Source: Trypanosoma brucei (taxonomy: Eukaryota). Taken from it: a stretch of DNA of 64,000 nt. The DNA lies in assembly GCA_000002445.1 (NCBI GenBank), contig CM000208.1, positions 512,001 through 576,000 of the forward strand. The letters are read 5' to 3'. The notes under the pieces were generated by a model. The model searched no databases and was not told the origin of the DNA. It worked only from the letters and a program-made list of their open reading frames with translations. Below are positions 536-37,884 of the stretch, piece by piece; the first letter of the stretch is position 1, and each line of letters starts with the position of its first letter. The translations under genes and the position numbers were made by a program.

Positions 536-910
536 GAGAGGAGTGCGAGTGCGCGTGTTCGTCCGTGTGAGACAATCTAATGAGTTACTAACTTACCTCT
601 TCGTCATTCACTAGTAAGGATTTGGTTTGGTATTCTAACTTTTTGTGATTCGTATAATCGCTAACGTTTTTGTTTACCTTTTTTTTCTAAAAGACTTTCG
701 ATGGCTTGGTGCCGCGTCGCACAAACTGGGAATATGTTAAGACGAGAAAGTTTTCATCTGTGCCCTTCGCTTTCCTTTCTCTTATTATCTTTCACTTGCC
801 CAAAATGAACACAGGACGGAGTGTAATTAGATTGAGTCCGGCGAGTAGTGGTCAAATACGGTTGTTGGGCTGTGTGTTGGTTGTTGGTGTCGCAGGTAAG
901 TAATTTGGAG

Positions 911-3900
911 ATGGCCCAACCGGTGGATCTATGTGAACTGTACAGTTCTTACTGCAAGGAGGAAGGTTGTAAACCAAATACTGCGGTTTTGCAATACATT
1001 ATCGACTGTGGGCGCAGGTATCCACTAGAAAAGTTGATACTGGGTAACAATTACTTGGGACCACGAGGCTTACGACCGATTGTTCGCCTGGTGGACTATT
1101 GTCCAACAATGATGCATCTCAACATCGATGAGAACGGGGCTGATAACGACACCGTATCACTCCTCTGTGATGTGCTAATGACACACAAAGGCATGCAGAC
1201 AATCAGCCTACGCGGTAATCCAATCACGGCCACCGGTGGGAAGAAGTTGCTCGCACTTGCGGAGAAGAACCCTAAAATCACTCATATTGATCTTGATAAC
1301 ACGGACGTTTTTCAGGCACTCTTGTTGAAGATCTACGCCGCAACGAAAGCGAACCGTGATCGGATTGGGAGGGGGGCGGTACACCTTATTCCAACCAGTA
1401 TGGACGAGAAGGAATTAATGGCTATTGTGAGCAGCGCAAATACGAAGATGACACACACGTTTACAGAGAAGCCGGTGATTAGACAACTCCCCAGCGTCAA
1501 AAAGGGTGAGCCAACTCCTGTGGAGAGTTCCGTGTCACCCCGTGTAGTGTCACCGGTGGAGCGCTCAACAACTTTCCCAAAACCTGGTAGGGCCTGGGGT
1601 GGTGGTCAACCTTCCTGTGAAACCAAGTCTCCCCTTGCACGCAGGAAGGGGAGGGCTCGGCCACCTATTCCTCCCATTACGTCTCGTTTGCCGGAGTCTC
1701 AACGACTAGAGTTGCAGAAGGAATACCGTCAAAGGGCAATGATCCTACGCGAAGTGAATACGAGCCAAGCGAGCAAAGTAGCCAATCGCGTTCGTGAAGA
1801 GTTGATGCTATTAGAGCGTAACTTTAGGAGTGAGCCCTCCACCCAACTCGGTTGGAACGTGGAAGCTGCGGGAACGGAGGCCGGAGAAGGTAAGGGGGAC
1901 CACAGTTTCGACCAAGATTTGGAGGCTATTGAAGGATATGTGGACACCAACCAGGAGGAGACGGAGCATGGTGCTCAGCCGCAAATGCAGCATGTAGAGG
2001 AAGGCTCCGCGGATAATAGTCGACCTGAGGGGCTTATAAATCGCTCATCAAATGGTGCTTTCGGCCCTCCACCGAACTTCCGTGAGCCACAGCAGCAAGT
2101 GTTGTTGCGAAGGGATGAAACATCTCCCGAAGTACCATTCGGCAATGCCGGAGGGGTGACTTCGCTGAAGTCCATAAATTTGAGCGCAATTTCCCCATCT
2201 TCTAATAGCCCTGATTTCACTGGGAAAATTGTGTTGCAAAGTGGTACTCCGAACACGAATACGGAGAAGGAGAGCGAAGACAACGTACACACATTTATGG
2301 AGAGTCCTGCTTGGATGACGCTCGGAAGCGGCGAAAAATTGCAGTACCTCTTTAACAGTGGCTGTCGTGCGTACGTAAGCCAGAAGTTTGACACTTCGTA
2401 CATGGCATGGAAGGAGGCAATGTCCATTGCCACTTCAGTGAAGGACAGACAGTGGATGGCAGTGCTTTCTAACAATTTGCAGCGACTGAGCTATGAGATG
2501 CTAGTACGTGAAGGTACCGAGTTCCTAGATGAATTTAAGCTAGAAGATGCGGACGTAGCCTTTCAGCGTGCTCTTGAAGTTGCCCGTAGGGCAAATAACG
2601 CAAAATGGGAGTCAGATATGCATAAAGCACGTCGGGATGTACAGGTGGCTATTTTCCACAAAACTGATGAGGCTGCGTTGCGTATGTTCGAAAAAGCACA
2701 AACCACGGAGCCGCGAAAAGTGACGAGTGACGATTATTTTGTCGTTGCGGGCTCCGATGTACTTATACAGCACACCGAGGCGTACGTGAACGAGTGGGCT
2801 TGCATGTTGCTGGTAAAGGAGGCTGTCGAGTTGTGGGCGGCGGCCATCCGCGTCACTGAGCGAATTGGGGGAACTGCTTCTCATACACTTCAAGTTTCTG
2901 TGAAGGAGTCGCTGACTACAGTTTCGTACTTTCTCGCGCAGAGGTGTTTCGATGTGGAGGACACACAGTCGTTGAGTTGGATGTCCACTTCCCGCTACAA
3001 CTACCATGAGTGTATTATGCTCATCAAACTGTGGACGGACATGACGTCCAGCGCCGATTTTCGCGAAAATCATAAACTCTTCGCAGCCATTGCCGCGGCT
3101 CAGATAGGGAATTTGTACCTAGCTACGAACCAACTGAAAGAGGCGGAGGCGCAGTTCTCAGCGCTTACATCTCTCGGTGAAGAACTTCGTGATTCAATCC
3201 TAATCGCTGCCGGGCACACTTTCCGGGCACTTCTCAACTGGCAGTGTGCGCGGTATCCAGCAGCGGAGGAGCACTTTCGTACGGCCGTAGCGCGTTGGGG
3301 TGCACTACGCGATGTGGTGAGACGGGAACGACTGGAGCAGAACAGCTTCGTTGGAAATACCACTGGTGTCAACTCAACATCAAATTCCAGCAGTAACGTA
3401 GTCGATAGTCTGACCAAGGTGACCACCGGCCGTTATCACGTGGATGGAGTTTCAGATGCTGTGTTTTCCCGCTGTAATGAGTTGTCAAGGCTACTGTTGC
3501 TGCTGCCACGTGGATACGTGTCGATGATGGAGTGTGTCAGCTACAACTACCTTGTTTCGAGTCTCGCATGCAAATACCGATACAGCGAAGCACTGGAGGT
3601 GTTGGAGTGTGGCTTGGTTTGTAAGTATCGTGACATGCTCTTTGACAAGCTCGAGATGAACTTTAGCACTCGGCCTACTTTTGCACAAATCACGGCCACA
3701 CCTTCACTGGTTCACTCACCCCTGGTTTATTATTTGACGACAAGGCGTTATGAATGGAGCTCTACAAAGTGCTCCTACGACGTGGAGGAGAGTTTGCTAA
3801 CGTGGATTGTTCCACAGGTGGGTGACATGCGTTTTATTGAGATCCCTTTGATGAAGGAAATGAAAGTGTTGTCCGTTGACAGTCTTGTGCAGAGGGTGCG

Positions 3901-5128
3901 TAAGTCACTTTTGCTTGCCCCCCTTGATAGGCTGGGAGCAAACAATGCTAGGAGTGGCGGAACCAGCGGTGACTCCTGTGGGGGCGAAAAGGCGGTGGAT
4001 GCACCTGAGATAATTACGGAGCTTCCTAATAAAACATGGGTGGAACCACTCAAGACGCTTTACAACATTTTCATCGAGCCCATTGCAGCCTATATCCGCT
4101 CGTCGGACCCGCGGCTCCTGGCAAAGAACGGTGTCGTAACGATAATTCCCACGGATGGCCTGTGGCTCGTCCCATTCAATGCCCTCATGTCACGGAACGG
4201 GAATTTCGTTATTGAGGACTTTGCTTTTCAGTTGGGGTTCAGCGCTACACAGTGTCGTCTCGCTGCGCTGAGTGCGAAGCGAGTGCAGCAGCGGTGTTTG
4301 TTTCAGAACTTGGTGCTCGTACAAAAACAGGCGGACGCTACCGAGCAGTTGATGTCGCACTTGCTTTTTCCTCTTGATGCTCACCGCTCAGAGAGTGAAG
4401 GTGCTGTAGTCATGCAGACGCTTGCTCAGAACAAGCGGCACGTCCGACACCAGTGTAATTCCTACGTGACAAGCGAGATAACGAGCAGCGAGGTGCTCCT
4501 GCACGACATCGAGAAACTGAAGGAACACTTGCCGCGCAGTCGCACAGTTCATATCGCCGCCTCCACCACAAGCGGCTTTCGGAATGAGGATGCAGGTGGA
4601 GGTGCCATTTGTATAGCGGGGACAAAGGGCGACTTACAACTGTTGCGTTCCTCTGATATTGCGCGCATGGAATTATTCGCTGAGCACGTGATTCTTAGCA
4701 ACGCTAATATGTCACCCTCTGGCATCGTTGGCACGCACGACGATGTACTTTGTCTCACCCGCGGCTTCCTCGCTAGCGGGGTGCCATGCGTTATTACATC
4801 GCAGTGGTGCACACCCGACATGGTGCCAGCGATGCTCTTCTCACGCTTTTACCAACACCAGTCCGCGCCCAATAAACGCACTCGAAGCTCGTTGCTGTCC
4901 CGTGATTCCATTGGACTGCTCCCTGCATCGGGTACTCAACAGAATGCATTGTCTAGGAAGGAGGAGGGGAGTGATCGGTGTAACGACAACTTAAACTGGC
5001 ACAAGGCACTTTTCCTTGCGCAAGCCATCCGGGGGTTATTGGAGGACGACACATTCCGTTACTCACCGCGTTCGTGGGCGGGGTATTATTGCATTGGGTA
5101 CGGGTTGATGCCGCCGGGGGAGGCCTGA
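911..5128 (+). CDS. Large multidomain protein: N-terminal leucine-rich repeats (ribonuclease-inhibitor-like), central TPR-like helical region, C-terminal CHAT (caspase HetF-associated with TPRs) peptidase-like domain
   Basis: 1426-aa ORF (the track starts at a GTG at 848; first ATG at 911, MAQPVDL...). LRR signature: LGNNYLGPRGLRPIVRLVDYCPTMMHLNIDENG...ISLRGNPITATGGKKLLALAEKNPKITHIDLDNTDV. C-terminal block matches CHAT architecture: ...VVTIIPTDGLWLVPFNAL..., ...TVHIAAST..., ...HVILSNANMSPSGIVG..., ...DVLCLTRGFLASGVPCVITSQWCTPD..., ...FSRFYQH... Confidence 0.8.
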   Translation: MAQPVDLCELYSSYCKEEGCKPNTAVLQYIIDCGRRYPLEKLILGNNYLGPRGLRPIVRLVDYCPTMMHLNIDENGADNDTVSLLCDVLMTHKGMQTISLRGNPITATGGKKLLALAEKNPKITHIDLDNTDVFQALLLKIYAATKANRDRIGRGAVHLIPTSMDEKELMAIVSSANTKMTHTFTEKPVIRQLPSVKKGEPTPVESSVSPRVVSPVERSTTFPKPGRAWGGGQPSCETKSPLARRKGRARPPIPPITSRLPESQRLELQKEYRQRAMILREVNTSQASKVANRVREELMLLERNFRSEPSTQLGWNVEAAGTEAGEGKGDHSFDQDLEAIEGYVDTNQEETEHGAQPQMQHVEEGSADNSRPEGLINRSSNGAFGPPPNFREPQQQVLLRRDETSPEVPFGNAGGVTSLKSINLSAISPSSNSPDFTGKIVLQSGTPNTNTEKESEDNVHTFMESPAWMTLGSGEKLQYLFNSGCRAYVSQKFDTSYMAWKEAMSIATSVKDRQWMAVLSNNLQRLSYEMLVREGTEFLDEFKLEDADVAFQRALEVARRANNAKWESDMHKARRDVQVAIFHKTDEAALRMFEKAQTTEPRKVTSDDYFVVAGSDVLIQHTEAYVNEWACMLLVKEAVELWAAAIRVTERIGGTASHTLQVSVKESLTTVSYFLAQRCFDVEDTQSLSWMSTSRYNYHECIMLIKLWTDMTSSADFRENHKLFAAIAAAQIGNLYLATNQLKEAEAQFSALTSLGEELRDSILIAAGHTFRALLNWQCARYPAAEEHFRTAVARWGALRDVVRRERLEQNSFVGNTTGVNSTSNSSSNVVDSLTKVTTGRYHVDGVSDAVFSRCNELSRLLLLLPRGYVSMMECVSYNYLVSSLACKYRYSEALEVLECGLVCKYRDMLFDKLEMNFSTRPTFAQITATPSLVHSPLVYYLTTRRYEWSSTKCSYDVEESLLTWIVPQVGDMRFIEIPLMKEMKVLSVDSLVQRVRKSLLLAPLDRLGANNARSGGTSGDSCGGEKAVDAPEIITELPNKTWVEPLKTLYNIFIEPIAAYIRSSDPRLLAKNGVVTIIPTDGLWLVPFNALMSRNGNFVIEDFAFQLGFSATQCRLAALSAKRVQQRCLFQNLVLVQKQADATEQLMSHLLFPLDAHRSESEGAVVMQTLAQNKRHVRHQCNSYVTSEITSSEVLLHDIEKLKEHLPRSRTVHIAASTTSGFRNEDAGGGAICIAGTKGDLQLLRSSDIARMELFAEHVILSNANMSPSGIVGTHDDVLCLTRGFLASGVPCVITSQWCTPDMVPAMLFSRFYQHQSAPNKRTRSSLLSRDSIGLLPASGTQQNALSRKEEGSDRCNDNLNWHKALFLAQAIRGLLEDDTFRYSPRSWAGYYCIGYGLMPPGEA

Positions 5129-6356: not shown

Positions 6357-8477
6357 ATGACCGATAATAAGGTTCTCTACGTTGGTTGCGTTGTTGTCAC
6401 CCTGAAAGAGGTTCGCGTCTGCGGGAAGCAGCTGGAGTGTGAAGCGACCCGCAGTGGTGGCGCCCAGTTCTGCGTGCGTACTGCCGTGGCCGTGGCAGAG
6501 ACTGCAAACCACAGCATACATGAGCGTTTCTGTGAGCGCGTCAACTCCAGCATATACTCCTTTAAAAACAGCACGATGATGGAACAAATGGTGGTACCGG
6601 TGATGCTGTTGCGTTCCCCATCAACCATCGCCACGATGAACGGGAGCAAACACAATGACAAGGTCAATACCAACGGTAGTGCCGATCGCGTCAGGAATGG
6701 TAACAGCGATGTGACTGATCTGGGAGCGAACGGGGAGGATATGGATGTAGGGCTAGATCTGTTTTTGGATATCAGTTTCTTGCATGGAGAATCTATGGTA
6801 TGGAGTCTGCGACGCCGAGTTGAGGTGGAGTCATTGGACGCAATCGCCTCGCAGAATTGTGGAGTTGCAGTTGCGCGCGTGAGTACCGATGTCCTGCAAA
6901 GCAACGGTGTGTTGCCGACTTCAGAGGCTGTACGGGGCGGTTCCGCCGCGTGTGATGCCAGCGATGGACGTGAGGATGATGAATGGTCAGGGTTAGAGTT
7001 GCACGTCATTGTGCGGTCCATGGACATGTCCGAGCCGATTCGGCTGATGGTTGCCGCAGAGCGGGAGGCGAGCGCGTTTCTGGACTTACCTCAGAGAGAA
7101 CCCCAAACAGTATTCTTGTTACCGCTGCGGCATGCCATGCCATACAACGCGCTTCCGCTTGAGGTACTGTACCAGTTTTATTGCTGTTTCTATGAGTATT
7201 TCTTTAACAAGCCTGTTAAAGTCTTTGGGCACGTGGTGAATATGCTGCGTACCCGGCAACCTGGTGGAATGGGTGACAACAAAACACGCGGTGGTGCTGT
7301 TACAGAAGGACGCTGGAGCGAGTTACGCTCCGCTGACCTACGTCCCTTACTTCTCGGTGAAGATGCATTAGCGCCGGTACTGGCCACACTGTTTCACTGC
7401 CCAGGGTTACGTGAGTTACTGTTGGACCAAAACAGTTTGAGTGATATAACGTGCTACCGTATTAGATCCCTGTTTTACCGCCACCGCCACTTAGAGACGC
7501 TGTCCATCGCAAGGAATAATATACATGAGGGTGGCGGCGAGCAGCTTGTGCGCCTCATACGTCGGAACAAGCGTCTTATTGATGTGAAAGCCTCTGGCAA
7601 CCATTTCACGCACTCTATGTCGTCGCGGATCCAGCGTGTGGCGAGTCTCAACGAGGAGTACATAAGGGGGGACCCTTACAATGTCTTTTCATCTGCGTAT
7701 TCGTATGTTGTGTCTCCCACATCGTTCCCGGCTAGCATTATAAAACAAGCACTAGCTGTTTGGGCGATGCTCTCAGCGGCGCCGGTAAGCACGGTAATTG
7801 TAGACTGCGTCCCTAACAGCACTTTTGGGATAGACTTAATGGGTTCTCCCAACAATATGAAAAGCAACGGTTCCCTCCACGGCTCTGCACTTGACAACGG
7901 TGTTGTGGAAGCTACTGATAAGGCGTTGGAGTCCAGCCAAGCTACTTCAATTCCCCATTGTGCGCTCTCGCCTCTCCTGAATGAAGTGATGCGGACTGTT
8001 GCACTACGAATGTCGTCCATTTTACACGACCCGTGGGCACTCCTTGTGTTCTCTGATATTGAAAGTCATTGGGAACGGTGCACCATAACACTGAGGGAAC
8101 AGAAGGAAAAATGCAGCAAACAGGACGCCCAGGCCGCCGCAGACGGGCGAGAAGATGGGCCTGCAAGCATAAGACATGGTGAGGCAGCGTTGTGCGAGGT
8201 GGAGGACTTGTACGCCATATCATTTCTTCACCTTGTGGTAGTGACAATGCGAGCCGTTGGAAGGGCAATGGACTGGGAAGACGCGTCTTCGGTGCTTCGC
8301 GATATTGGAAGGAAGCAGATGGCTATAGGCATTTTAGAAGAAAACTACCGTGATGCTATCCAGATCTTTGTCCAGTCACTTGCAGTGGTGTGTGGGAAAG
8401 ACGAAGCTGACGTTGAGCACTCCGCAGCATTCCTTCAGTGCCTCGCCTTAGGCGTCAGGACTGCAGTAGCAGCGTAA
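6357..8477 (+). CDS. Hypothetical leucine-rich-repeat protein (706 aa)
   Basis: ATG at 6357, TAA at 8475-8477. LRR segment: LRPLLLGEDALAPVLATLFHCPGLRELLLDQNSLSDITCYRIRSLFYRHRHLETLSIARNNIHEGGGEQLVRLIRRNKRLIDVKASGNHF. Same strand and spacing as its neighbours. Confidence 0.65.
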   Translation: MTDNKVLYVGCVVVTLKEVRVCGKQLECEATRSGGAQFCVRTAVAVAETANHSIHERFCERVNSSIYSFKNSTMMEQMVVPVMLLRSPSTIATMNGSKHNDKVNTNGSADRVRNGNSDVTDLGANGEDMDVGLDLFLDISFLHGESMVWSLRRRVEVESLDAIASQNCGVAVARVSTDVLQSNGVLPTSEAVRGGSAACDASDGREDDEWSGLELHVIVRSMDMSEPIRLMVAAEREASAFLDLPQREPQTVFLLPLRHAMPYNALPLEVLYQFYCCFYEYFFNKPVKVFGHVVNMLRTRQPGGMGDNKTRGGAVTEGRWSELRSADLRPLLLGEDALAPVLATLFHCPGLRELLLDQNSLSDITCYRIRSLFYRHRHLETLSIARNNIHEGGGEQLVRLIRRNKRLIDVKASGNHFTHSMSSRIQRVASLNEEYIRGDPYNVFSSAYSYVVSPTSFPASIIKQALAVWAMLSAAPVSTVIVDCVPNSTFGIDLMGSPNNMKSNGSLHGSALDNGVVEATDKALESSQATSIPHCALSPLLNEVMRTVALRMSSILHDPWALLVFSDIESHWERCTITLREQKEKCSKQDAQAAADGREDGPASIRHGEAALCEVEDLYAISFLHLVVVTMRAVGRAMDWEDASSVLRDIGRKQMAIGILEENYRDAIQIFVQSLAVVCGKDEADVEHSAAFLQCLALGVRTAVAA

Positions 8478-8866: not shown

Positions 8867-11458
8867 ATGGTGGACAAGGAGAATCAGGTGATTAGGTTGC
8901 GACCTTATGAATATATTCATGTAATGGACAGGAACACTTGTGAGGTGATGCTTGTGGAGGGCCCGCGCTCCTTCACGATGTTGGACCACCACATAAGTCT
9001 CCACGACAAGGTGCAGAACCACGTTGTTGTTCCACCGGGCCACTACTGCGAAGTAGAGAACCCCGTGGTGAAGCCGACTGCAAGCTCATCTGTGGGGACC
9101 CTGTGTAATGAGATGGGCCACCGTGAAGTGCGTTTGAGCCAGGACCCGTTCCCGCTGCACCCTGGCGAGAAACTCGTGACGGAACCTCAGCCGATGCGTA
9201 TTCTGGCTGCTAACGAAGCGATTGCGGTGCGTGCGTTGAAGGAATTCACATACTCCGTCCCCGCTCTGGGCGGGAGTAACAACGGTGAGAAGGGTGACAC
9301 CACTGGAGTTGCAGTACGCCGTCGTGCCGTAGGAGAGGTTTGGTTGGTGCGTGGTCCCTGCGAGTACGTTCCGCGTGTGGAGGAGGTGGTGGAGGGCAAT
9401 GTGACGCCCATTTTTCTATCTGCGGGTCAGTCGCTCGTCTTGCGTGCGAACTGCAATTTCACGGATATTAACGGCGTAAAACGGTCACGGGGTGATGTGT
9501 GGGCCGTTACCACTGCGGGCATGCACTTCCCCGATCCGTCGGCGAGCGTCGTGCGTGTGCATGAAGGCGTAATCCTGTCTGCAACGGAAGCGGTGCGTGT
9601 GCGTGCACTCCGCTCGTTCTTCGACCGTCTGGCGGCTGTTGATCGTGTAGCTGGGGAGCGGTGGCTTGTGACACATGATGTCGTGCCGCTGTTTATCCCC
9701 ACAGTGGATGAGGAGGTGGAAGAGAAGATTTCTCTTACAATCGTCGGAGAGCGGCAGTACTGCGAGATACTTAACGTGGTGAAGGGTGGTGTGTGTCACT
9801 ATGGTGTGTGCGAAGTACGCCATGGTCCATGTTCGTTCTTCCTGCAACCTGGAGAAGTCCTGGTAGGTGGAACTGTGCGGGAGGCGCACATTCTCTCCTC
9901 TGACGAGGCGCTTCTCGTCGTCGCCGTCCGTGCCTTTGTGGACGAGGACGGGGTGGAGCGTGAACCTGCATCGCGGTGGTTGGTTCATGGGCCACGGAAG
10001 TACATCCCACCGCAAGGCGTGACCGTGGTGGAGCGCCGGAAGCGGATGGTGTTGAGTGGCAGTGAGGGTGTGTATGTACGTGATATTTGCACTGGCAACG
10101 TGCGGGCGGTGCATGGTGAGGCTGTGTTGCTGGGGCCTGAAGAGGAGTTATGGGAAAAGCCCATCGACCCGCTGGTGCATAAGCTGCTCACTGCCCGCAG
10201 ACACTCCATGTACGCTTCTCGTGTGTGCACAGAAACCTCGGTGGATGTTGGTTCTGAGGGCCATCCGAGGACACACAAGATTGTTATGTTCAAGGTGCCG
10301 CATAATGCACTGGTGCAGCTGTATGACCCGACGACGAACAAGAGCCGCGTGGAGGCCGGGCCACTGACTGTATCACTTGGTCCGAACGAGGAGATTAGTG
10401 TGGTTGTGCTCTCCGGTGGGCAACCGAAGCGGCGTGGTCACATTCACTCACTGTTTCTCTTTTTGGGTCCTGACTTTATGGCTGACAAGATTGTTGTCGA
10501 AACACTTGAGCACGCGCGGTTGCAACTTGAAATTGCGTACAATTGGGAGTTCGACACAACGGATGTGGAGCATATCAAGCGTATCGCCTTCAGCGTGCCG
10601 GACTTCGTTGGCATGGCGTGCAAGACACTGGCGAACCGAATCCGTGCTGCGATTGCCAGTGAACCGTTTGATAACTTCCATCGAAATTCATCCTCCCTCA
10701 TACGGCGGGCCATATTCCACTCACACTCCGGAACGACGGAGCTGCGTGGCGACAGTCTTTACTTTCCTGTGAACGGCCTTGTGATAACAAATGTGGACGT
10801 ACGCAGCGTTGAACCGGTTGAGGTGAAGATGCAAAACGCCCTCACGAAAAGTGTACAGCTCGCTGTGGAGATTATTACCAAGTCCCAGGAAAACGAGGCT
10901 TCCCACCAGGCGATGTTAATGGAGCAGGAGGAGAAGGGTGCGCTAGAGCTGCAACTGATGAAGGACCGCGTGTCGGCAGAGGAGGAGCGAGTGAAACTGT
11001 TGCGTGTTGTTGCCGAAAACACTGCAATCGAACTGTGCGGCGCGAGCAAGGCGCAGGCGTTGGCTGAGAGCGAGGCGCGTTGCGTGGAGTCGCAGGGCGA
11101 ATTGGATGTAACAGGGATAAGATGTGAAGCCCAGTCGCTGATTGCCGCTGCGCAGCTTGCCGGTCTCCGGGAGCGGGTGGAAAGCAAACTCTGCCACCGG
11201 CGGGCTATGGATGAACTTGCTATCGCGAAAGCCAAGGCCCTCTCGGACATCGATGCGACGAAGTATGAGAAGATATTTGAGGCTCTGGGTAAGGGAACAT
11301 TTGAAGCTATTGCGCGGGCTGGACCGGAACTAAAGGCGAAATTGCTGCAGGCGCTTGGTCTCAAGGGATTCCTTGTAACTGATGGTTCAACACCGATTAA
11401 TTTGCTCGGAATTGCAGACTGCGTGCTGCACAAAAATGGGAACGACGCGTTGCCATGA
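8867..11458 (+). CDS. MVP: Major vault protein (MVP)
   Basis: N-terminus MVDKENQVIRLRPYEYIHVMDRNTCEVMLVEGPRSFTMLDHHISLHDKVQNHVVVPPGHYCEVENPV parallels the conserved MVP N-terminus (xxIRIPPYHYIHVLDxNxNVxRVEVGPxTY...PPRHYCxVxNP). Repeated MVP-type beta-repeat blocks follow (VRxxxxxLxxGExLV...). C-terminal coiled-coil cap-helix region is present (QLMKDRVSAEEERVKLLRVVAENTAIEL...). 863 aa. Confidence 0.9.
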   Translation: MVDKENQVIRLRPYEYIHVMDRNTCEVMLVEGPRSFTMLDHHISLHDKVQNHVVVPPGHYCEVENPVVKPTASSSVGTLCNEMGHREVRLSQDPFPLHPGEKLVTEPQPMRILAANEAIAVRALKEFTYSVPALGGSNNGEKGDTTGVAVRRRAVGEVWLVRGPCEYVPRVEEVVEGNVTPIFLSAGQSLVLRANCNFTDINGVKRSRGDVWAVTTAGMHFPDPSASVVRVHEGVILSATEAVRVRALRSFFDRLAAVDRVAGERWLVTHDVVPLFIPTVDEEVEEKISLTIVGERQYCEILNVVKGGVCHYGVCEVRHGPCSFFLQPGEVLVGGTVREAHILSSDEALLVVAVRAFVDEDGVEREPASRWLVHGPRKYIPPQGVTVVERRKRMVLSGSEGVYVRDICTGNVRAVHGEAVLLGPEEELWEKPIDPLVHKLLTARRHSMYASRVCTETSVDVGSEGHPRTHKIVMFKVPHNALVQLYDPTTNKSRVEAGPLTVSLGPNEEISVVVLSGGQPKRRGHIHSLFLFLGPDFMADKIVVETLEHARLQLEIAYNWEFDTTDVEHIKRIAFSVPDFVGMACKTLANRIRAAIASEPFDNFHRNSSSLIRRAIFHSHSGTTELRGDSLYFPVNGLVITNVDVRSVEPVEVKMQNALTKSVQLAVEIITKSQENEASHQAMLMEQEEKGALELQLMKDRVSAEEERVKLLRVVAENTAIELCGASKAQALAESEARCVESQGELDVTGIRCEAQSLIAAAQLAGLRERVESKLCHRRAMDELAIAKAKALSDIDATKYEKIFEALGKGTFEAIARAGPELKAKLLQALGLKGFLVTDGSTPINLLGIADCVLHKNGNDALP

Positions 11459-11935
11459 GCGTAGGGGCATATATGTGGGTACACCTCCGCATGTGTGAAA
11501 ATTTCTTCAGTTACATGTTTCTTGATAGCTATTTATTTTCCTTCCGTTTTCGACGCATTTGTTTCTTCACTGATATGTGAGCGGTGCTAGTGACAGCCCC
11601 TCCCTTCCTCCCTCCCCTGCAGTCCCTTACAGGGTGATAGTGATCCCTGTAGGAGGAAATGCTGGTGGCGCACGCGCCCCACTTGCCTACATGTATATGA
11701 TTAACGTTACATAAATCTCCCTCTTGTTGCCGTGTATGGTGCAATACATCTTGGGAAGGAAGTGAAACCATTGCTGCTGCTTAACCGCACTGCGGTGTAG
11801 TGATATGTCTGTGCTACATGAAGTTGTGATTGGAACAGACGATGCTTGCCGTGACGGCGCGTCGGGCAACGATGTTAGTGGGTTGTTACAGTCGACATTG
11901 GTGCCTACCATATGTGAGAGTGGTGACAACAAATA

Positions 11936-11987
11936 GTTTTTGTTTTGTTTTATTTTTTTACAAATTCTTTTTTTTTGTTTTTTGTAG
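11936..11987 (+). promoter_or_regulatory. Polypyrimidine tract + AG trans-splice acceptor upstream of the actin-related protein gene
   Basis: tttttgttttgttttatttttttacaaattctttttttttgttttttgtag immediately followed by ATG at 11989; canonical kinetoplastid SL-addition signal. Confidence 0.6.
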
Positions 11988-11988
11988 G

Positions 11989-13518
11989 ATGACTGCTGGA
12001 TATCCGGTTCTTGTAGTTGATAATGGTGGCTATATGCTAAAGGCGCTCTACATTACTAGTGACGGTAAGTCCTCTTTTTTGCGTGGTAAAATTGCCGTAA
12101 TACCTAATTGTGTTGGAGCTGCTTCATATGTCGGTCGTGGAATTGTCGGTGAGCAGCTTTTCAAGTTACCGCACTTTCATGGCTTTATGGTTCGTCGTCC
12201 TGTTGATCGTGGTTTTATTGTGGATGCGGGACTTCAAAGCTACATTTGGGAGTACCTTCTTCAACACTTGGCTGTAGCCGATGAAAGTGAAGTGGAGCTT
12301 GTTATGACTGTCCCGTTTGGCGCTCCAAAGCAGGTGGGTGAACTTCTTCACTATTTGGTTGCACAGCGTTTCAGGTTTCGGTCAGTAACATTTGTGAGTT
12401 CGTCATTTCTAACGTTAGTGTCTTCTGTTTCACGCGATTGGCTGTATGGAAAGGCACCGGGTAATGGTAAAAGCAACAAAAAGGTGCGTGAAAAGTCAAA
12501 TTTCGGTTCTGACGGCGTGGGCTCTGAGAGTGTGACCGGGTGTGGGATGGTCGTTGACTTTGGTTTCTCGTCGACAACAGTTGTTCCGTACGTTAATTTC
12601 ATTCCATTGCAGGATTCTATTGTGCGAATTGACGTTGGTGGGAAGCTCTTGTCAAACAGGCTAAAGGAGCTCATTTCATTTACTCAGGTTAACGTGACGG
12701 AAGATGGTTGGTTAGTAAATCACATTATGGAGCAGGCCTGTTATGTGGCTCTGGATCCACTCGTGTCCTTGCGAAAGGCTGAATACGCAAAGCGGTTTGA
12801 TAAGGGGAACGGTGCTTTTGCAGGGTTGCGGTACTACTTGCCTACTGTTCCACCCCTTATGCCCCTTGGTTGTCGTGAGGAGCAGCTGACTCAAATCATT
12901 GGCAAAGACGTTGTGTTGCAGGAGAAAAATTCTTTACAGCATATTGTTTTCCGTCACGAGGCCTTTCTTATCCCGGAGCTTATCTTTAATCCTGTGGATG
13001 TGGGCATTTGCCAGATGGGTGTCGTCGAAGCCATAGTTCATGGGACCTGCTGCAGAGGTTCGCTACAGAACATGCGCACGTTGCACGGTGCAATGATGCG
13101 ACGCATCATTGCGTTTGGTGGTATTACCAAGTTTAAAAATCTTCCTGAGCGACTTTCGACAGAGCTCCGAAAGCATCTGAAGGAGGAGGGAGCATCGAGA
13201 GTGAGTGTCCCACCTGTAAAAGGTTCTGCCCCTCTTCAGGAATTCGTTCAATGGTCGCGCATTGGAAGGGTACGTATCGATCTTCAGTATAATGGCGTTG
13301 GTTATACACCGAGTGACTGTGAACTTCAACCCCTTTTCGGTGCTCTTGCACTTATCACGTGCCCCGTGCTGGAACCTCAGTTGAAATTGGTGCAAAGCCG
13401 GAGTCGTGTGGAGCTCCTGCCGGGAAGCACAGCAAAGGGAAGCCAAAACAGACAACAGGCATCCGCGGGCCCAAGGACTCTTAGTGCGGTTCTCTCGGCG
13501 CTTCAAAATTTACTGTAA
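11989..13518 (+). CDS. Actin-related protein (actin-fold, ARP family)
   Basis: MTAGYPVLVVDNGGYMLKALYITSDG...VIPNCVGAA...GEQLFKLPHFHGFMVRRPVDRGFIVDAGLQSYIWEYLL follows the actin N-terminal pattern (ALVxDNGSGxxKAGFAGDD...PSIVGRP...VGDEA...PIEHGIIxNWDDMEKIWHH). The track's start at 11830 is a TTG inside the polyY tract; the true ATG is at 11989. Confidence 0.75.
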   Translation: MTAGYPVLVVDNGGYMLKALYITSDGKSSFLRGKIAVIPNCVGAASYVGRGIVGEQLFKLPHFHGFMVRRPVDRGFIVDAGLQSYIWEYLLQHLAVADESEVELVMTVPFGAPKQVGELLHYLVAQRFRFRSVTFVSSSFLTLVSSVSRDWLYGKAPGNGKSNKKVREKSNFGSDGVGSESVTGCGMVVDFGFSSTTVVPYVNFIPLQDSIVRIDVGGKLLSNRLKELISFTQVNVTEDGWLVNHIMEQACYVALDPLVSLRKAEYAKRFDKGNGAFAGLRYYLPTVPPLMPLGCREEQLTQIIGKDVVLQEKNSLQHIVFRHEAFLIPELIFNPVDVGICQMGVVEAIVHGTCCRGSLQNMRTLHGAMMRRIIAFGGITKFKNLPERLSTELRKHLKEEGASRVSVPPVKGSAPLQEFVQWSRIGRVRIDLQYNGVGYTPSDCELQPLFGALALITCPVLEPQLKLVQSRSRVELLPGSTAKGSQNRQQASAGPRTLSAVLSALQNLL

Positions 13519-13888: not shown

Positions 13889-15304
13889 ATGTCTAGACGC
13901 CTAAACAATATCCTCGAACACATCTCGATCCAGGGAAATGATGGTGAGACTGTGCGTGCCGTTAAGCGTGATGTTGCAATGGCAGCGCTGACCAACCAAT
14001 TCACAATGAGTGTCGAGTCTATGCGACAGATCATGACATACCTCCTGTACGAGATGGTGGAGGGTCTTGAGGGTCGTGAAAGCACCGTCCGCATGTTACC
14101 ATCTTATGTATACAAGGCGGACCCTAAGCGTGCTACTGGCGTCTTCTACGCACTTGACCTCGGTGGTACCAACTTCCGTGTGCTGCGCGTTGCATGCAAG
14201 GAGGGTGCCGTGGTGGATTCCTCTACTTCTGCATTCAAGATTCCCAAATATGCCCTTGAGGGTAACGCCACCGATCTGTTTGGCTTCATTGCATCCAATG
14301 TGAAGAAAACCATGGAAACTCGTGCACCTGAGGACCTCAATCGCACAGTTCCTCTTGGGTTTACCTTCAGTTTCCCCGTGGAGCAGACGAAGGTTAACCG
14401 TGGTGTGCTTATCCGGTGGACGAAGGGCTTCAGCACGAAAGGCGTTCAAGGAAATGATGTGATTGCCCTTCTTCAGGCTGCTTTTGGGCGAGTGAGCTTG
14501 AAGGTGAATGTTGTGGCGTTGTGCAACGACACTGTTGGAACATTAATTTCGCATTACTTTAAGGACCCTGAGGTACAGGTTGGTGTGATTATCGGCACTG
14601 GTTCCAATGCGTGCTACTTTGAGACGGCGTCTGCTGTGACGAAGGACCCTGCCGTTGCTGCTCGTGGGTCAGCACTTACTCCCATCAATATGGAAAGCGG
14701 CAACTTTGACTCCAAGTACCGGTTTGTCCTCCCTACGACGAAGTTCGACTTGGATATTGACGATGCGTCGTTGAACAAAGGTCAACAGGCGCTGGAGAAG
14801 ATGATATCCGGCATGTACCTCGGCGAAATCGCCCGCCGCGTTATTGTGCACCTGTCGTCTATTAACTGCCTTCCTGCGGCACTGCAGACTGCTTTGGGCA
14901 ACCGGGGGTCGTTTGAGTCCCGATTTGCCGGGATGATCAGTGCTGACCGTATGCCCGGACTTCAGTTCACTCGCAGCACGATCCAGAAGGTGTGTGGTGT
15001 TGACGTGCAGTCAATTGAAGACCTTCGCATCATTCGCGATGTGTGCCGCCTTGTCCGTGGGAGGGCTGCGCAACTCTCTGCTTCCTTCTGCTGCGCTCCA
15101 CTGGTTAAGACTCAAACACAGGGCCGTGCAACTATTGCAATTGACGGCTCCGTGTTTGAGAAGATTCCGTCATTCCGCCGCGTCTTGCAGGACAACATCA
15201 ACCGTATCCTTGGCCCTGAGTGCGATGTCAGGGCCGTTCTCGCAAAGGATGGCAGTGGAATTGGTGCTGCATTTATTTCCGCAATGGTGGTGAACGACAA
15301 GTAA
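13889..15304 (+). CDS. HK1: Hexokinase, glycosomal (PTS2-bearing), upstream copy (HK1-like)
   Basis: 471 aa; N-terminal PTS2-like MSRRLNNILEHI; hexokinase motifs LDLGGTNFRV, FTFSFPV, IGTGSNACYFE. Differs from the downstream copy at G/D, GTL/ATM and N/S internally and in the C-terminal tail (...AKDGSGIGAAFISAMVVNDK). Confidence 0.93.
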   Translation: MSRRLNNILEHISIQGNDGETVRAVKRDVAMAALTNQFTMSVESMRQIMTYLLYEMVEGLEGRESTVRMLPSYVYKADPKRATGVFYALDLGGTNFRVLRVACKEGAVVDSSTSAFKIPKYALEGNATDLFGFIASNVKKTMETRAPEDLNRTVPLGFTFSFPVEQTKVNRGVLIRWTKGFSTKGVQGNDVIALLQAAFGRVSLKVNVVALCNDTVGTLISHYFKDPEVQVGVIIGTGSNACYFETASAVTKDPAVAARGSALTPINMESGNFDSKYRFVLPTTKFDLDIDDASLNKGQQALEKMISGMYLGEIARRVIVHLSSINCLPAALQTALGNRGSFESRFAGMISADRMPGLQFTRSTIQKVCGVDVQSIEDLRIIRDVCRLVRGRAAQLSASFCCAPLVKTQTQGRATIAIDGSVFEKIPSFRRVLQDNINRILGPECDVRAVLAKDGSGIGAAFISAMVVNDK

Positions 15305-16934: not shown

Positions 16935-18350
16935 ATGTCTAGACGCCTAAACAATATCCTCGAACACATCTCGATCCAGGGAAATGATGGTGAGACTGTG
17001 CGTGCCGTTAAGCGTGATGTTGCAATGGCAGCGCTGACCAACCAATTCACAATGAGTGTGGAGTCTATGCGACAGATCATGACATACCTCCTGTACGAGA
17101 TGGTGGAGGGTCTTGAGGGTCGTGAAAGCACCGTCCGCATGTTACCATCTTATGTATACAAGGCGGACCCTAAGCGTGCTACTGGCGTCTTCTACGCACT
17201 TGACCTCGGTGGTACCAACTTCCGTGTGCTGCGCGTTGCATGCAAGGAGGGTGCCGTGGTGGATTCCTCTACTTCTGCATTCAAGATTCCCAAATATGCC
17301 CTTGAGGGTAACGCCACCGATCTGTTTGACTTCATTGCATCCAATGTGAAGAAAACCATGGAAACTCGTGCACCTGAGGACCTCAATCGCACAGTTCCTC
17401 TTGGGTTTACCTTCAGTTTCCCCGTGGAGCAGACGAAGGTTAACCGTGGTGTGCTTATCCGGTGGACGAAGGGCTTCAGCACGAAAGGCGTTCAAGGAAA
17501 TGATGTGATTGCCCTTCTTCAGGCTGCTTTTGGGCGAGTGAGCTTGAAGGTGAATGTTGTGGCGTTGTGCAACGACACTGTTGCCACGATGATTTCGCAT
17601 TACTTTAAGGACCCTGAGGTACAGGTTGGTGTGATTATCGGCACTGGTTCCAATGCGTGCTACTTTGAGACGGCGTCTGCTGTGACGAAGGACCCTGCCG
17701 TTGCTGCTCGTGGGTCAGCACTTACTCCCATCAGTATGGAAAGCGGCAACTTTGACTCCAAGTACCGGTTTGTCCTCCCTACGACGAAGTTCGACTTGGA
17801 TATTGACGATGCGTCGTTGAACAAAGGTCAACAGGCGCTGGAGAAGATGATATCCGGCATGTACCTCGGCGAAATCGCCCGCCGCGTTATTGTGCACCTG
17901 TCGTCTATTAACTGCCTTCCTGCGGCACTGCAGACTGCTTTGGGCAACCGGGGGTCGTTTGAGTCCCGATTTGCCGGGATGATCAGTGCTGACCGTATGC
18001 CCGGACTTCAGTTCACTCGCAGCACGATCCAGAAGGTGTGTGGTGTTGACGTGCAGTCAATTGAAGACCTTCGCATCATTCGCGATGTGTGCCGCCTTGT
18101 CCGTGGGAGGGCTGCGCAACTCTCTGCTTCCTTCTGCTGCGCTCCACTGGTTAAGACTCAAACACAGGGCCGTGCAACTATTGCAATTGACGGCTCCGTG
18201 TTTGAGAAGATTCCGTCATTCCGCCGCGTCTTGCAGGACAACATCAACCGTATCCTTGGCCCTGAGTGCGATGTCAGGGCCGTTCTCGCAAAGGGTGGCA
18301 GTGGTGTCGGTGCGGCACTTATCTCCGCTATCGTTGCTGACGGGAAGTGA
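16935..18350 (+). CDS. HK2: Hexokinase, glycosomal, downstream copy (HK2-like) with divergent C-terminal tail
   Basis: 471 aa, ~98% identical to the upstream copy; C-terminus ...AKGGSGVGAALISAIVADGK. Assignment of HK1/HK2 to the two copies follows the known T. brucei locus order and is not certain from sequence alone. Confidence 0.93.
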   Translation: MSRRLNNILEHISIQGNDGETVRAVKRDVAMAALTNQFTMSVESMRQIMTYLLYEMVEGLEGRESTVRMLPSYVYKADPKRATGVFYALDLGGTNFRVLRVACKEGAVVDSSTSAFKIPKYALEGNATDLFDFIASNVKKTMETRAPEDLNRTVPLGFTFSFPVEQTKVNRGVLIRWTKGFSTKGVQGNDVIALLQAAFGRVSLKVNVVALCNDTVATMISHYFKDPEVQVGVIIGTGSNACYFETASAVTKDPAVAARGSALTPISMESGNFDSKYRFVLPTTKFDLDIDDASLNKGQQALEKMISGMYLGEIARRVIVHLSSINCLPAALQTALGNRGSFESRFAGMISADRMPGLQFTRSTIQKVCGVDVQSIEDLRIIRDVCRLVRGRAAQLSASFCCAPLVKTQTQGRATIAIDGSVFEKIPSFRRVLQDNINRILGPECDVRAVLAKGGSGVGAALISAIVADGK

Positions 18351-34351: not shown

Positions 34352-35701
34352 ATGGGAAAGGAAAAGGTGCACATGAATCTTGTGGTGGTGGGCCACGTCG
34401 ATGCCGGTAAATCCACTGCAACGGGTCACTTGATCTACAAGTGCGGTGGTATTGACAAACGTACGATCGAGAAGTTCGAGAAAGAAGCTGCCGACATTGG
34501 TAAGGCCTCATTCAAGTACGCATGGGTGCTGGACAAGCTGAAGGCTGAGCGCGAACGTGGTATCACGATCGACATTGCACTGTGGAAATTCGAGTCACCC
34601 AAGTCTGTCTTCACTATTATTGATGCTCCTGGGCACCGTGACTTCATCAAGAACATGATCACCGGCACATCGCAAGCCGACGCAGCCATCCTCATCATTG
34701 CCTCTGCGCAGGGTGAGTTCGAGGCTGGTATCTCCAAGGATGGACAGACCCGCGAGCACGCGTTGCTGGCCTTCACTTTGGGTGTGAAGCAGATGGTTGT
34801 GTGCTGCAACAAGATGGACGACAAGACTGTGAACTACGGACAGGAGCGGTATGACGAGATTGTGAAGGAGGTGTCTGCTTACATCAAGAAGGTTGGGTAC
34901 AACGTGGAGAAGGTGCGCTTCGTCCCCATCTCCGGATGGCAGGGCGACAACATGATTGAGAAATCCGAGAAGATGCCATGGTACAAGGGTCCAACGCTCC
35001 TGGAGGCACTAGACATGCTGGAGCCACCAGTGCGTCCGAGCGACAAGCCCCTGCGTCTGCCACTGCAGGACGTGTACAAGATCGGTGGTATTGGCACCGT
35101 GCCCGTTGGTCGTGTGGAGACCGGCGTGATGAAGCCTGGTGATGTGGTGACGTTTGCCCCCGCCAACGTGACGACCGAGGTGAAATCGATCGAGATGCAC
35201 CACGAGCAGCTCGCTGAGGCGACCCCCGGTGACAACGTCGGCTTTAACGTGAAGAACGTTTCTGTAAAGGACATCCGCCGTGGCAACGTCTGCGGTAACA
35301 CCAAGAACGACCCCCCAAAGGAGGCCGCCGACTTCACGGCACAGGTGATCATCCTGAACCACCCCGGACAGATTGGAAACGGTTATGCGCCCGTGCTGGA
35401 CTGCCACACATCGCACATTGCCTGCAAGTTCGCGGAGATCGAGTCGAAGATCGACCGTCGCTCTGGCAAGGAGCTGGAGAAGGCTCCCAAGTCGATCAAG
35501 TCTGGCGACGCCGCGATCGTGCGCATGGTGCCGCAGAAGCCTATGTGCGTGGAGGTCTTCAACGACTACGCGCCACTCGGCCGCTTTGCCGTGCGTGACA
35601 TGCGCCAGACCGTCGCTGTCGGTATCATCAAGGCCGTGACCAAGAAGGACGGTTCTGGTGGTAAGGTGACGAAGGCTGCGGTGAAGGCTTCGAAGAAATA
35701 A
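34352..35701 (+). CDS. TEF1: Elongation factor 1-alpha, copy 2 (intact, 449 aa)
   Basis: [35 protein letters not shown]...; GTP-binding motifs [14 protein letters not shown] and NKMD are present. Confidence 0.97.
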
Positions 35702-36534: not shown

Positions 36535-37884
36535 ATGGGAAAGGAAAAGGTGCACATGAATCTTGTGGTGGTGGGCCACGTCGATGCCGGTAAATCCACT
36601 GCAACGGGTCACTTGATCTACAAGTGCGGTGGTATTGACAAACGTACGATCGAGAAGTTCGAGAAAGAAGCTGCCGACATTGGTAAGGCCTCATTCAAGT
36701 ACGCATGGGTGCTGGACAAGCTGAAGGCTGAGCGCGAACGTGGTATCACGATCGACATTGCACTGTGGAAATTCGAGTCACCCAAGTCTGTCTTCACTAT
36801 TATTGATGCTCCTGGGCACCGTGACTTCATCAAGAACATGATCACCGGCACATCGCAAGCCGACGCAGCCATCCTCATCATTGCCTCTGCGCAGGGTGAG
36901 TTCGAGGCTGGTATCTCCAAGGATGGACAGACCCGCGAGCACGCGTTGCTGGCCTTCACTTTGGGTGTGAAGCAGATGGTTGTGTGCTGCAACAAGATGG
37001 ACGACAAGACTGTGAACTACGGACAGGAGCGGTATGACGAGATTGTGAAGGAGGTGTCTGCTTACATCAAGAAGGTTGGGTACAACGTGGAGAAGGTGCG
37101 CTTCGTCCCCATCTCCGGATGGCAGGGCGACAACATGATTGAGAAATCCGAGAAGATGCCATGGTACAAGGGTCCAACGCTCCTGGAGGCACTAGACATG
37201 CTGGAGCCACCAGTGCGTCCGAGCGACAAGCCCCTGCGTCTGCCACTGCAGGACGTGTACAAGATCGGTGGTATTGGCACCGTGCCCGTTGGTCGTGTGG
37301 AGACCGGCGTGATGAAGCCTGGTGATGTGGTGACGTTTGCCCCCGCCAACGTGACGACCGAGGTGAAATCGATCGAGATGCACCACGAGCAGCTCGCTGA
37401 GGCGACCCCCGGTGACAACGTCGGCTTTAACGTGAAGAACGTTTCTGTAAAGGACATCCGCCGTGGCAACGTCTGCGGTAACACCAAGAACGACCCCCCA
37501 AAGGAGGCCGCCGACTTCACGGCACAGGTGATCATCCTGAACCACCCCGGACAGATTGGAAACGGTTATGCGCCCGTGCTGGACTGCCACACATCGCACA
37601 TTGCCTGCAAGTTCGCGGAGATCGAGTCGAAGATCGACCGTCGCTCTGGCAAGGAGCTGGAGAAGGCTCCCAAGTCGATCAAGTCTGGCGACGCCGCGAT
37701 CGTGCGCATGGTGCCGCAGAAGCCTATGTGCGTGGAGGTCTTCAACGACTACGCGCCACTCGGCCGCTTTGCCGTGCGTGACATGCGCCAGACCGTCGCT
37801 GTCGGTATCATCAAGGCCGTGACCAAGAAGGACGGTTCTGGTGGTAAGGTGACGAAGGCTGCGGTGAAGGCTTCGAAGAAATAA
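36535..37884 (+). CDS. TEF1: Elongation factor 1-alpha, copy 3 (intact, 449 aa; identical protein to copy 2)
   Basis: Identical translation to copy 2. Confidence 0.97.

Follow-up and report, generated by a model that had tools for sequence, protein, structure and literature searches.

A Trypanosoma brucei LRR-TPR-CHAT protein, conserved across Euglenozoa, is without the canonical His-Cys dyad of the CHAT proteases

The 64,000-nucleotide stretch of Trypanosoma brucei chromosome 10 analyzed here (contig CM000208.1, positions 512,001 to 576,000; referred to below as the window) carries near its start a gene for a protein of 1,405 amino acids (aa), in which leucine-rich repeats (LRRs) and a helical array resembling tetratricopeptide repeats (TPRs) precede a C-terminal CHAT domain. 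The main finding is that the canonical His-Cys dyad is absent from this CHAT domain, which is otherwise well folded and conserved. The column of the catalytic Cys is occupied by Ala1265 (GCT, nucleotides 4703-4705) and the column of the catalytic His by Ser1218 (TCC, nucleotides 4562-4564), and the Gly that follows the His is replaced by Thr1219. The translated open reading frame (ORF) is 100% identical to T. brucei TREU927 XP_822452.1/EAN77624.1/UniProt Q38C46, and the database label of Q38C46 is already "CHAT domain-containing protein"; no statement that the protein lacks the dyad was found in the searchable literature.

Assignment of the C-terminal region to the CHAT family had been proposed in an original prediction made from the sequence alone, and profile searches bear it out. 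Pfam CHAT (PF12770) matches aa 1045-1396 with an E value of 9.4e-58 and 196.4 bits against a cut-off of 24 bits, over profile positions 2-288 of 289, and the same family is matched by orthologs of the T. brucei protein. Apart from sub-threshold LRR and TPR models, no other Pfam family was found at E ≤ 10, Peptidase_C50 (separase) being among those unmatched in that scan, and a scan of NCBIfam gave no match. The region has the caspase/hemoglobinase fold seen in solved CHAT proteases; its fold is separase/Craspase-like, and the likeness to separase holds at the level of the fold only. The structural model used for this half of the protein (m77b16c6d2d0a) was computed from an 83-sequence alignment, and its residue numbers become protein numbers on addition of 859. 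In this model the region preceding the CHAT domain (aa 861-1040), which is conserved across the family, is predicted to form helices (8-75, model numbering) and three strands (79-91, 96-108, and 115-120) with a predicted local distance difference test (pLDDT) score above 90.

With aa 1000-1405 as the query, exhaustive HMMER searching brought up 2,410 relatives (E ≤ 1e-3), and the dyad columns were taken from two alignments, one of 157 fetched relatives anchored by phmmer and the other an independent MAFFT alignment of eight sequences. Canonical CHAT domains read aRiIHLATHG around the His and aeLVVLSACdTGrG around the Cys, against SRTVHIAAST and AEHVILSNANMS in the T. brucei protein; within HVILSNANMSPSG (aa 1259-1271), the canonical LSAC has become LSNA. 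A structural anchor for the register comes from the profile of a small alignment (A3), which matches one solved protein, DdvA of Myxococcus (8rot_B, E 3.4e-7). In the hmmsearch alignment to 8rot_B, the His of the profile motif AtHg falls on DdvA H862 and the Cys of LSaC on DdvA C907, and these two residues are the catalytic dyad of DdvA (PMC11506125). The corresponding dyads are H585/C627 in Csx29 and H2003/C2029 in human separase (PMC9729208). The small profile was needed to reach DdvA in the Protein Data Bank (PDB): single-sequence phmmer searches of the PDB with the whole protein, the CHAT region, or one canonical bacterial CHAT domain gave no CHAT match, and the PDB matches of the 83-sequence profile (A4) were dominated by the TPR arms of bacterial proteins.

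Both columns are nearly invariant in the wider family. Among 120 bacterial-type CHAT domains, the Cys column holds Cys in 99% and the His column holds His in about 85%, the remainder of the latter arising from small alignment shifts. A motif census found both motifs in 119 of 123 proteins (P0035-P0157), the four exceptions including the Diplonema ortholog (P0058) and one bacterial-type protein (P0137). Each of the two dyad substitutions requires at least two nucleotide changes, and each is identical in five T. brucei-group sequences. In the model, S1218 ends one strand (351-360) and A1265 comes directly after another (400-405), with local pLDDT of 96-97; the two residues would lie at the C-terminal ends of neighboring beta-strands, as expected for the dyad topology of clan CD. 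The motifs flanking the dyad (R..H.A, aE.VvLS, and D.V.gL.R.f..aG.p.v..s.W..pD) align without gaps, and the Gly context is gone as well (HG after the His column, TG after the Cys column).

The original prediction was right that the nucleophilic Cys is missing, as both alignments and the DdvA C907 anchor agree, but it had taken the His of TVHIAAST for the catalytic one. That residue, H1214, is the upstream, non-catalytic His of the motif H-x-x-x-H-G, and the catalytic column is that of S1218. H1214 is kept in about 91% of sequences, whether the CHAT domain is active or inactive. The HG dipeptide is indeed altered (S1218-T1219), as had been suggested, but H1214 is not its His. The Cys residues of DDVLCLTRGF and CVITSQWC, which had been named as places where a nucleophile might yet be found, were checked, and none lands in the nucleophile column. 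C1281 aligns with the canonical Gly of DGViGLSRsF, a position that is Gly in most orthologs, and C1293 and C1300 fall in the next strand and loop (SViVSLWsVpD).

The family to which this protein belongs was revealed by the exhaustive search; a word-indexed homolog search, even with a 20-sequence profile, returned six trypanosome sequences and one fragment. Named members come from T. congolense, T. vivax, T. melophagium, T. rangeli, Leptomonas seymouri, Strigomonas, Angomonas, Phytomonas, and Bodo saltans and, among diplonemids, from Diplonema papillatum and Lacrimia lanifica. Several environmental sequences belong as well, as does a eukprot transcriptome entry labeled "Hpha," which we take to be Hemistasia. 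The full LRR-TPR-CHAT architecture is present in T. congolense, T. vivax, T. melophagium, T. rangeli, Leptomonas, Phytomonas, Bodo saltans, Diplonema, Lacrimia, and "Hpha." Full-length phmmer comparisons show that all of these keep four structured modules: LRR (about aa 1-165, with the Pro-rich helix lying at 246-305), TPR-like (466-800), and pre-CHAT together with CHAT (861-1405). Among trypanosomes, identity is 55-70% in the modules and 5-20% in the linkers (166-245, 306-465, 801-860, and 1321-1360), and this contrast leads us to conclude that the gene is functional and under purifying selection rather than decaying.

Loss of the canonical Cys, proposed for the T. brucei protein, and with it that of the catalytic His extends to every kinetoplastid ortholog examined, the Cys column being Thr or Ala in all of them. 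In 23 kinetoplastid-type sequences the Cys column is Thr in 61% and mostly Ala in the rest, and the His column is unconstrained, its commonest residue being Ser at 26%. The Cys loop nevertheless has a consensus of its own in this clade (E1258 in 87%, N1264 in 74%, and N1266 in 87%). Farther along, R1284 is conserved in 96% and G1290, W1299, C1300, P1302, and D1303 in 100% of the 23 sequences; in bacterial CHAT domains the C1300 position is taken by Ala, Ser, or some other residue. The private consensus of the Cys loop, together with the invariance of W1299 and D1303, argues that a surface function has been retained and disfavors decay. The most conserved stretch of the CHAT domain is aa 1277-1306, whose counterpart in active relatives is made up of the helix that follows the Cys together with the strand and loop of SLWxVpD, which adjoin the active site.

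Diplonemids differ from this pattern. Four diplonemid sequences (P0058, P0031, P0034, and P0033) have a Cys at or next to the nucleophile position (LPACNHS) and Glu in the His column, and in diplonemids a His replaces D1303 (TPH). To judge from these sequences, the diplonemid state, with the Cys kept and the His changed to Glu, looks like a possible intermediate in the loss of the dyad. The suggestion that kinetoplastids possess a distinct family with a dead active site holds insofar as the family is distinct and conserved, but its limits are wider than supposed, since it includes diplonemids and these keep the Cys. Outside Euglenozoa, the bacterial-type relative P0137 is without both dyad residues (HLATYNSAD and LSSSSSALG), and dead CHAT domains therefore arise sporadically there too.

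The N-terminal half of the protein agrees with the domain types first proposed for it. The LRRs (aa 39-150) keep an exact 28-residue register with the pattern LxxLxLxxNxLgxxG, and a family-only profile (A5) searched against the PDB matches FAP101 (6.9e-17), NOD2 (1.1e-14), and ribonuclease inhibitor (1.7e-6), as well as RSP15, DRC5/TCTE1, and the LRR proteins of entries 9y6s and 9e5c. A single-sequence search of the PDB also matches LRR proteins, and Pfam LRR_6 is sub-threshold in the T. brucei protein (13.8 bits). The repeats are thus of the ribonuclease inhibitor (RI) type, as had been read from the sequence. Identity of the LRR module to its orthologs runs from 64% (T. congolense) down to 31% (Bodo). 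Farther on, aa 246-305 are 58-65% identical among trypanosomes versus 5-20% in the flanking linkers, and P252, P254, Q264, L268, R295, L298, and E302 are invariant in the orthologs.

For the helical part we used a second model (md2b506804d2e; aa 470-1405, 7 sequences), the CHAT half of which has pLDDT below 50. Its residues 1-340 are predicted to form paired helices with pLDDT of about 85-90, and this solenoid matches the TPR arrays of LGN/Pins, Tom70, and OGT (Foldseek E 5.5e-6, probability 1.0). The family profile also matches the TPRs of Rap phosphatase (0.002). Pfam TPR models are sub-threshold in the T. brucei protein, and in the Diplonema ortholog TPR_12 reaches 26.9 bits against a cut-off of 30.1. 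The TPR-like nature first ascribed to these repeats is accordingly supported by the confident model match to the LGN/Pins TPR domain, and, as modeled, a TPR-like solenoid lies N-terminal to the CHAT domain, which is the TPR-CHAT architecture.

On this evidence, we think it probable that the protein is an ancient, conserved euglenozoan pseudoprotease that acts as a non-catalytic interaction scaffold. Because the catalytic His has become Ser1218, the Gly after it Thr1219, and the catalytic Cys Ala1265, the protein would not be expected to cleave peptide bonds by the mechanism known for its family. In the arrangement we propose, the C-terminal module would be a separase/Craspase-like TPR-CHAT unit with a short RI-type LRR domain in front of it. 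The dyad would have been lost while the rest of the fold, including the strand and loop that in active relatives line the substrate groove, stayed under purifying selection from trypanosomes to Bodo and the diplonemids. Each of the three parts (the CHAT domain with its dead groove, the solenoid of TPR-like helices, and the LRR domain) would bind partner proteins or peptide motifs, with disordered linkers joining them, and the mode of action would be like that of other caspase-fold pseudoenzymes. A pseudopeptidase fused to interaction repeats had been envisaged from the outset, and the loss of both dyad residues supports it; what we infer from the whole is that the former active-site groove binds ligands and that the protein serves as a scaffold. 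By analogy with separase, in which D2151 recognizes the P1 Arg (PMC9729208), D1303 might still bind a basic residue.

Several observations weigh against this interpretation. Our search of the accessible literature found no experimental characterization of the protein and nothing specific on CHAT proteins of kinetoplastids or on CHAT domains in the central apparatus. The block at 1277-1306 is conserved in active CHAT domains as well, and its conservation may reflect core packing, not ligand binding. The loop that carries the clade-invariant C1300 is predicted to share a sheet edge with the former active site. Furthermore, diplonemids keep the canonical Cys; activity may thus be the ancestral condition, with some chemistry perhaps surviving today.

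A special case of the pseudoprotease interpretation is a regulator of the prozyme type, in which the dead CHAT domain would pair with an active clan-CD protease, or compete for its substrates, and so control its activity, on the template of c-FLIP with caspase-8. Candidate partners would be separase, a metacaspase, or Tb927.9.15290, the second annotated T. brucei CHAT protein, which is among RNA-associated/regulatory proteins with changed abundance in a PRMT1 knockout (PMC6299225). The TPR-CHAT units of separase and Craspase act as monomers (PMC11506125), which speaks against pairing, and we consider a prozyme role rather unlikely.

It is quite improbable, in our judgment, that the protein is instead a structural component of the flagellum (axonemal or central-apparatus) and the kinetoplastid analog of FAP46/CFAP46. 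FAP46, which belongs to the C1d projection in the central apparatus of cilia, likewise joins helical repeats to a separase/CHAT-like fold, but the likeness is at the level of the fold only. FAP46 is about twice the size of the T. brucei protein, and family profile A5 detected no sequence similarity to it, matching no FAP46/CFAP46 chain at E ≤ 0.01 even though such chains are in the PDB. The protein itself is not in any PDB entry, though several axonemal-complex entries hold the LRR proteins matched above, and RI-type LRRs are in any case generic. Outside Euglenozoa, the proteins nearest to it in sequence are TPR-CHAT proteins of the bacterial type rather than CFAP46, and other C1d subunits (FAP54 and FAP221) are listed as absent too.

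The conservation of C1300 raises another alternative, namely, that in kinetoplastids the nucleophile has moved from the canonical loop to C1300 of QWCTPD, with H1214 or some other residue as the base, to give a non-canonical clan-CD active site. Such a move would be in keeping with the distribution of C1300, which is invariant in the kinetoplastid-type clade only and has no equivalent in two of the four diplonemid sequences, which keep the canonical Cys. It would also suit the predicted position of C1300, three residues after strand E434-438 (model numbering) and on the sheet edge of the former dyad, and the 91% conservation of H1214. However, H1214 is as conserved in active CHAT domains, where it is non-catalytic, and needs no new role. 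Lacrimia holds both a Cys adjoining the canonical site and a C1300 equivalent, so that the pattern is not strictly complementary; the idea that C1300 and the canonical Cys exclude each other across clades is weakened to that extent. The oxyanion and Gly context (HG, and TG after the Cys) has been lost too. No case of a clan-CD enzyme with its nucleophile relocated is known to us, which also counts against a rewired enzyme, and we regard it as very improbable. A weaker form of this alternative would have the groove turned into a receptor that holds a substrate-like motif with high affinity, does not cleave it, and in this way regulates an active clan-CD protease.

Decay of the gene, or a dyad loss that is only an alignment artifact, might be suspected from the low pairwise identity of the CHAT domain to bacterial CHAT domains (24-29%), but it is hardly credible and is effectively refuted by conservation and by concordant alignments, given an intact ORF of 1,405 aa with length and architecture conserved across Euglenozoa, a register on which two independent alignment methods and the PDB anchor agree with gap-free flanking motifs, and a confident model that would put both columns at strand ends.

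Three further identities were considered and rejected. For an NLR/STAND sensor, the Pfam and NCBIfam scans found no NTPase family (NACHT or NB-ARC), and the regions between the domains are non-conserved linkers. For a defense-associated CHAT protease, there was no match to a PADLOC model, and the gene lies in a eukaryotic polycistronic unit with housekeeping neighbors. The protein is not the trypanosome ortholog of separase (MEROPS C50) either, as it has no C50 match, has lost the dyad that separase uses (H2003/C2029), is far smaller, and contains an LRR domain.

Comparison with the nearest known systems brings out what is particular to this protein. Csx29, the protease of Craspase, keeps H585/C627 (PMC9729208) where the T. 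brucei protein has Ser1218/Ala1265. Bacterial TPR-CHAT proteins (Csx29 and those of the cyanobacterial type) are without the N-terminal RI-type LRR domain and long disordered linkers added in the T. brucei protein, which for its part is eukaryotic and has no CRISPR or defense context. DdvA of Myxococcus xanthus (PDB 8rot), a TPR-CHAT anti-sigma factor, keeps H862/C907 and is periplasmic, membrane-anchored, and dimeric (PMC11506125). The known caspase-fold pseudoenzymes (the protease-like domain of c-FLIP, the caspase-like domain of Raptor, and MCA4) belong to other, distant sub-families (caspase and metacaspase), and none has an LRR-TPR-CHAT architecture. The last of these, the T. brucei metacaspase MCA4, is reported to be a Cys-to-Ser pseudopeptidase.

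CHAT proteases, whose eukaryotic cousin is separase, have lately come to prominence through Craspase, SAVED-CHAT, and gasdermin activation. To our knowledge, eukaryotic CHAT proteins other than separase are essentially unstudied. The results presented here place one of the two annotated T. brucei CHAT proteins in an ancient euglenozoan ortholog group that has long kept its whole LRR-TPR-CHAT body while discarding both catalytic residues, with diplonemids representing a half-way state. Counts of cysteine proteases in kinetoplastid parasites, and efforts to target such enzymes, should leave this protein out. The group also offers a natural series in which to follow the change of a TPR-CHAT protease into a binding module, and the groove positions W1299 and D1303 provide a handle for finding the ligands of that module. 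Pseudoproteases are common, and caspase-fold pseudoenzymes have precedent; hence the finding is useful rather than surprising.

Table 1. Features of the LRR-TPR-CHAT gene and its downstream neighbors (window coordinates)
Feature	Position	Strand	Remarks
Complete coding sequence	911..5128	+	1405 aa plus stop; ORF scan, ortholog-supported ATG
Four RI-type LRRs	1025..1360	+	aa 39-150, inside conserved N-terminal module aa 1-165
Pro-rich motif (RPPIPP), then helix	1646..1825	+	aa 246-305, between non-conserved linkers aa 166-245 and 306-465
TPR-like alpha-solenoid	2306..3310	+	aa 466-800
Pre-CHAT helices and long three-stranded beta element	3491..4030	+	aa 861-1040; predicted to pack with CHAT domain
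CHAT domain, caspase/separase-like fold	4043..5098	+	aa 1045-1396; PF12770
"His strand" SRTVHIAAST	4538..4567	+	aa 1210-1219; alignments, DdvA H862 anchor, model strand 351-360, pLDDT 97
"Cys loop" HVILSNANMS	4685..4714	+	aa 1259-1268; A1265 in Cys column, clade consensus N-[T/A]-N
QWCTPD loop	4802..4819	+	aa 1298-1303; counterpart of SLWsVpD, W1299 and D1303 kept
LRR-containing ORF, 706 aa, no Pfam family	6357-8477	+	Next gene downstream of CHAT gene
Major vault protein	8867-11458	+	Downstream neighbor
Actin-like protein	11830-13518	+	Downstream neighbor
Hexokinase tandem pair, 471 aa each	13889-15304, 16935-18350	+	Downstream neighbors
EF-1alpha tandem pair, 449 aa each	34352-35701, 36535-37884	+	Downstream neighbors

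In the ORF scan of the window, the open frame of the CHAT gene runs uninterrupted from 848 to 5128 on the forward strand. Its first ATG, at 911, is the start common to all orthologs aligned, which gives the 1,405-aa protein (Table 1). The gene is presumably Tb927.10.1970, to judge from the order of the neighbors and from TriTrypDB numbering. An in-frame GTG at 848, 21 codons upstream of the ATG, is the start of a prokaryote-style gene call in a public assembly (P0011, 1426 aa); the extension over 848-910 is an annotation artifact, and the CHAT protein has no such N-terminal extension. Long polypyrimidine tracts lie upstream of the ATG within positions 640-800 (e.g., at about 660-690 and 760-800) and are consistent with a trans-splicing acceptor region. 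An upstream ATG at 805 is short and out of frame.

All 22 of the large ORFs (≥250 aa) in the window are on the forward strand, a layout that fits a single trypanosome polycistronic unit. In the 706-aa ORF that follows the CHAT gene, an RI-type LRR stretch (aa 333-436) resembles the LRRs of the CHAT protein (BLASTP E 1e-9, 22% identity over 104 aa), and the two adjoining genes therefore share one repeat type.

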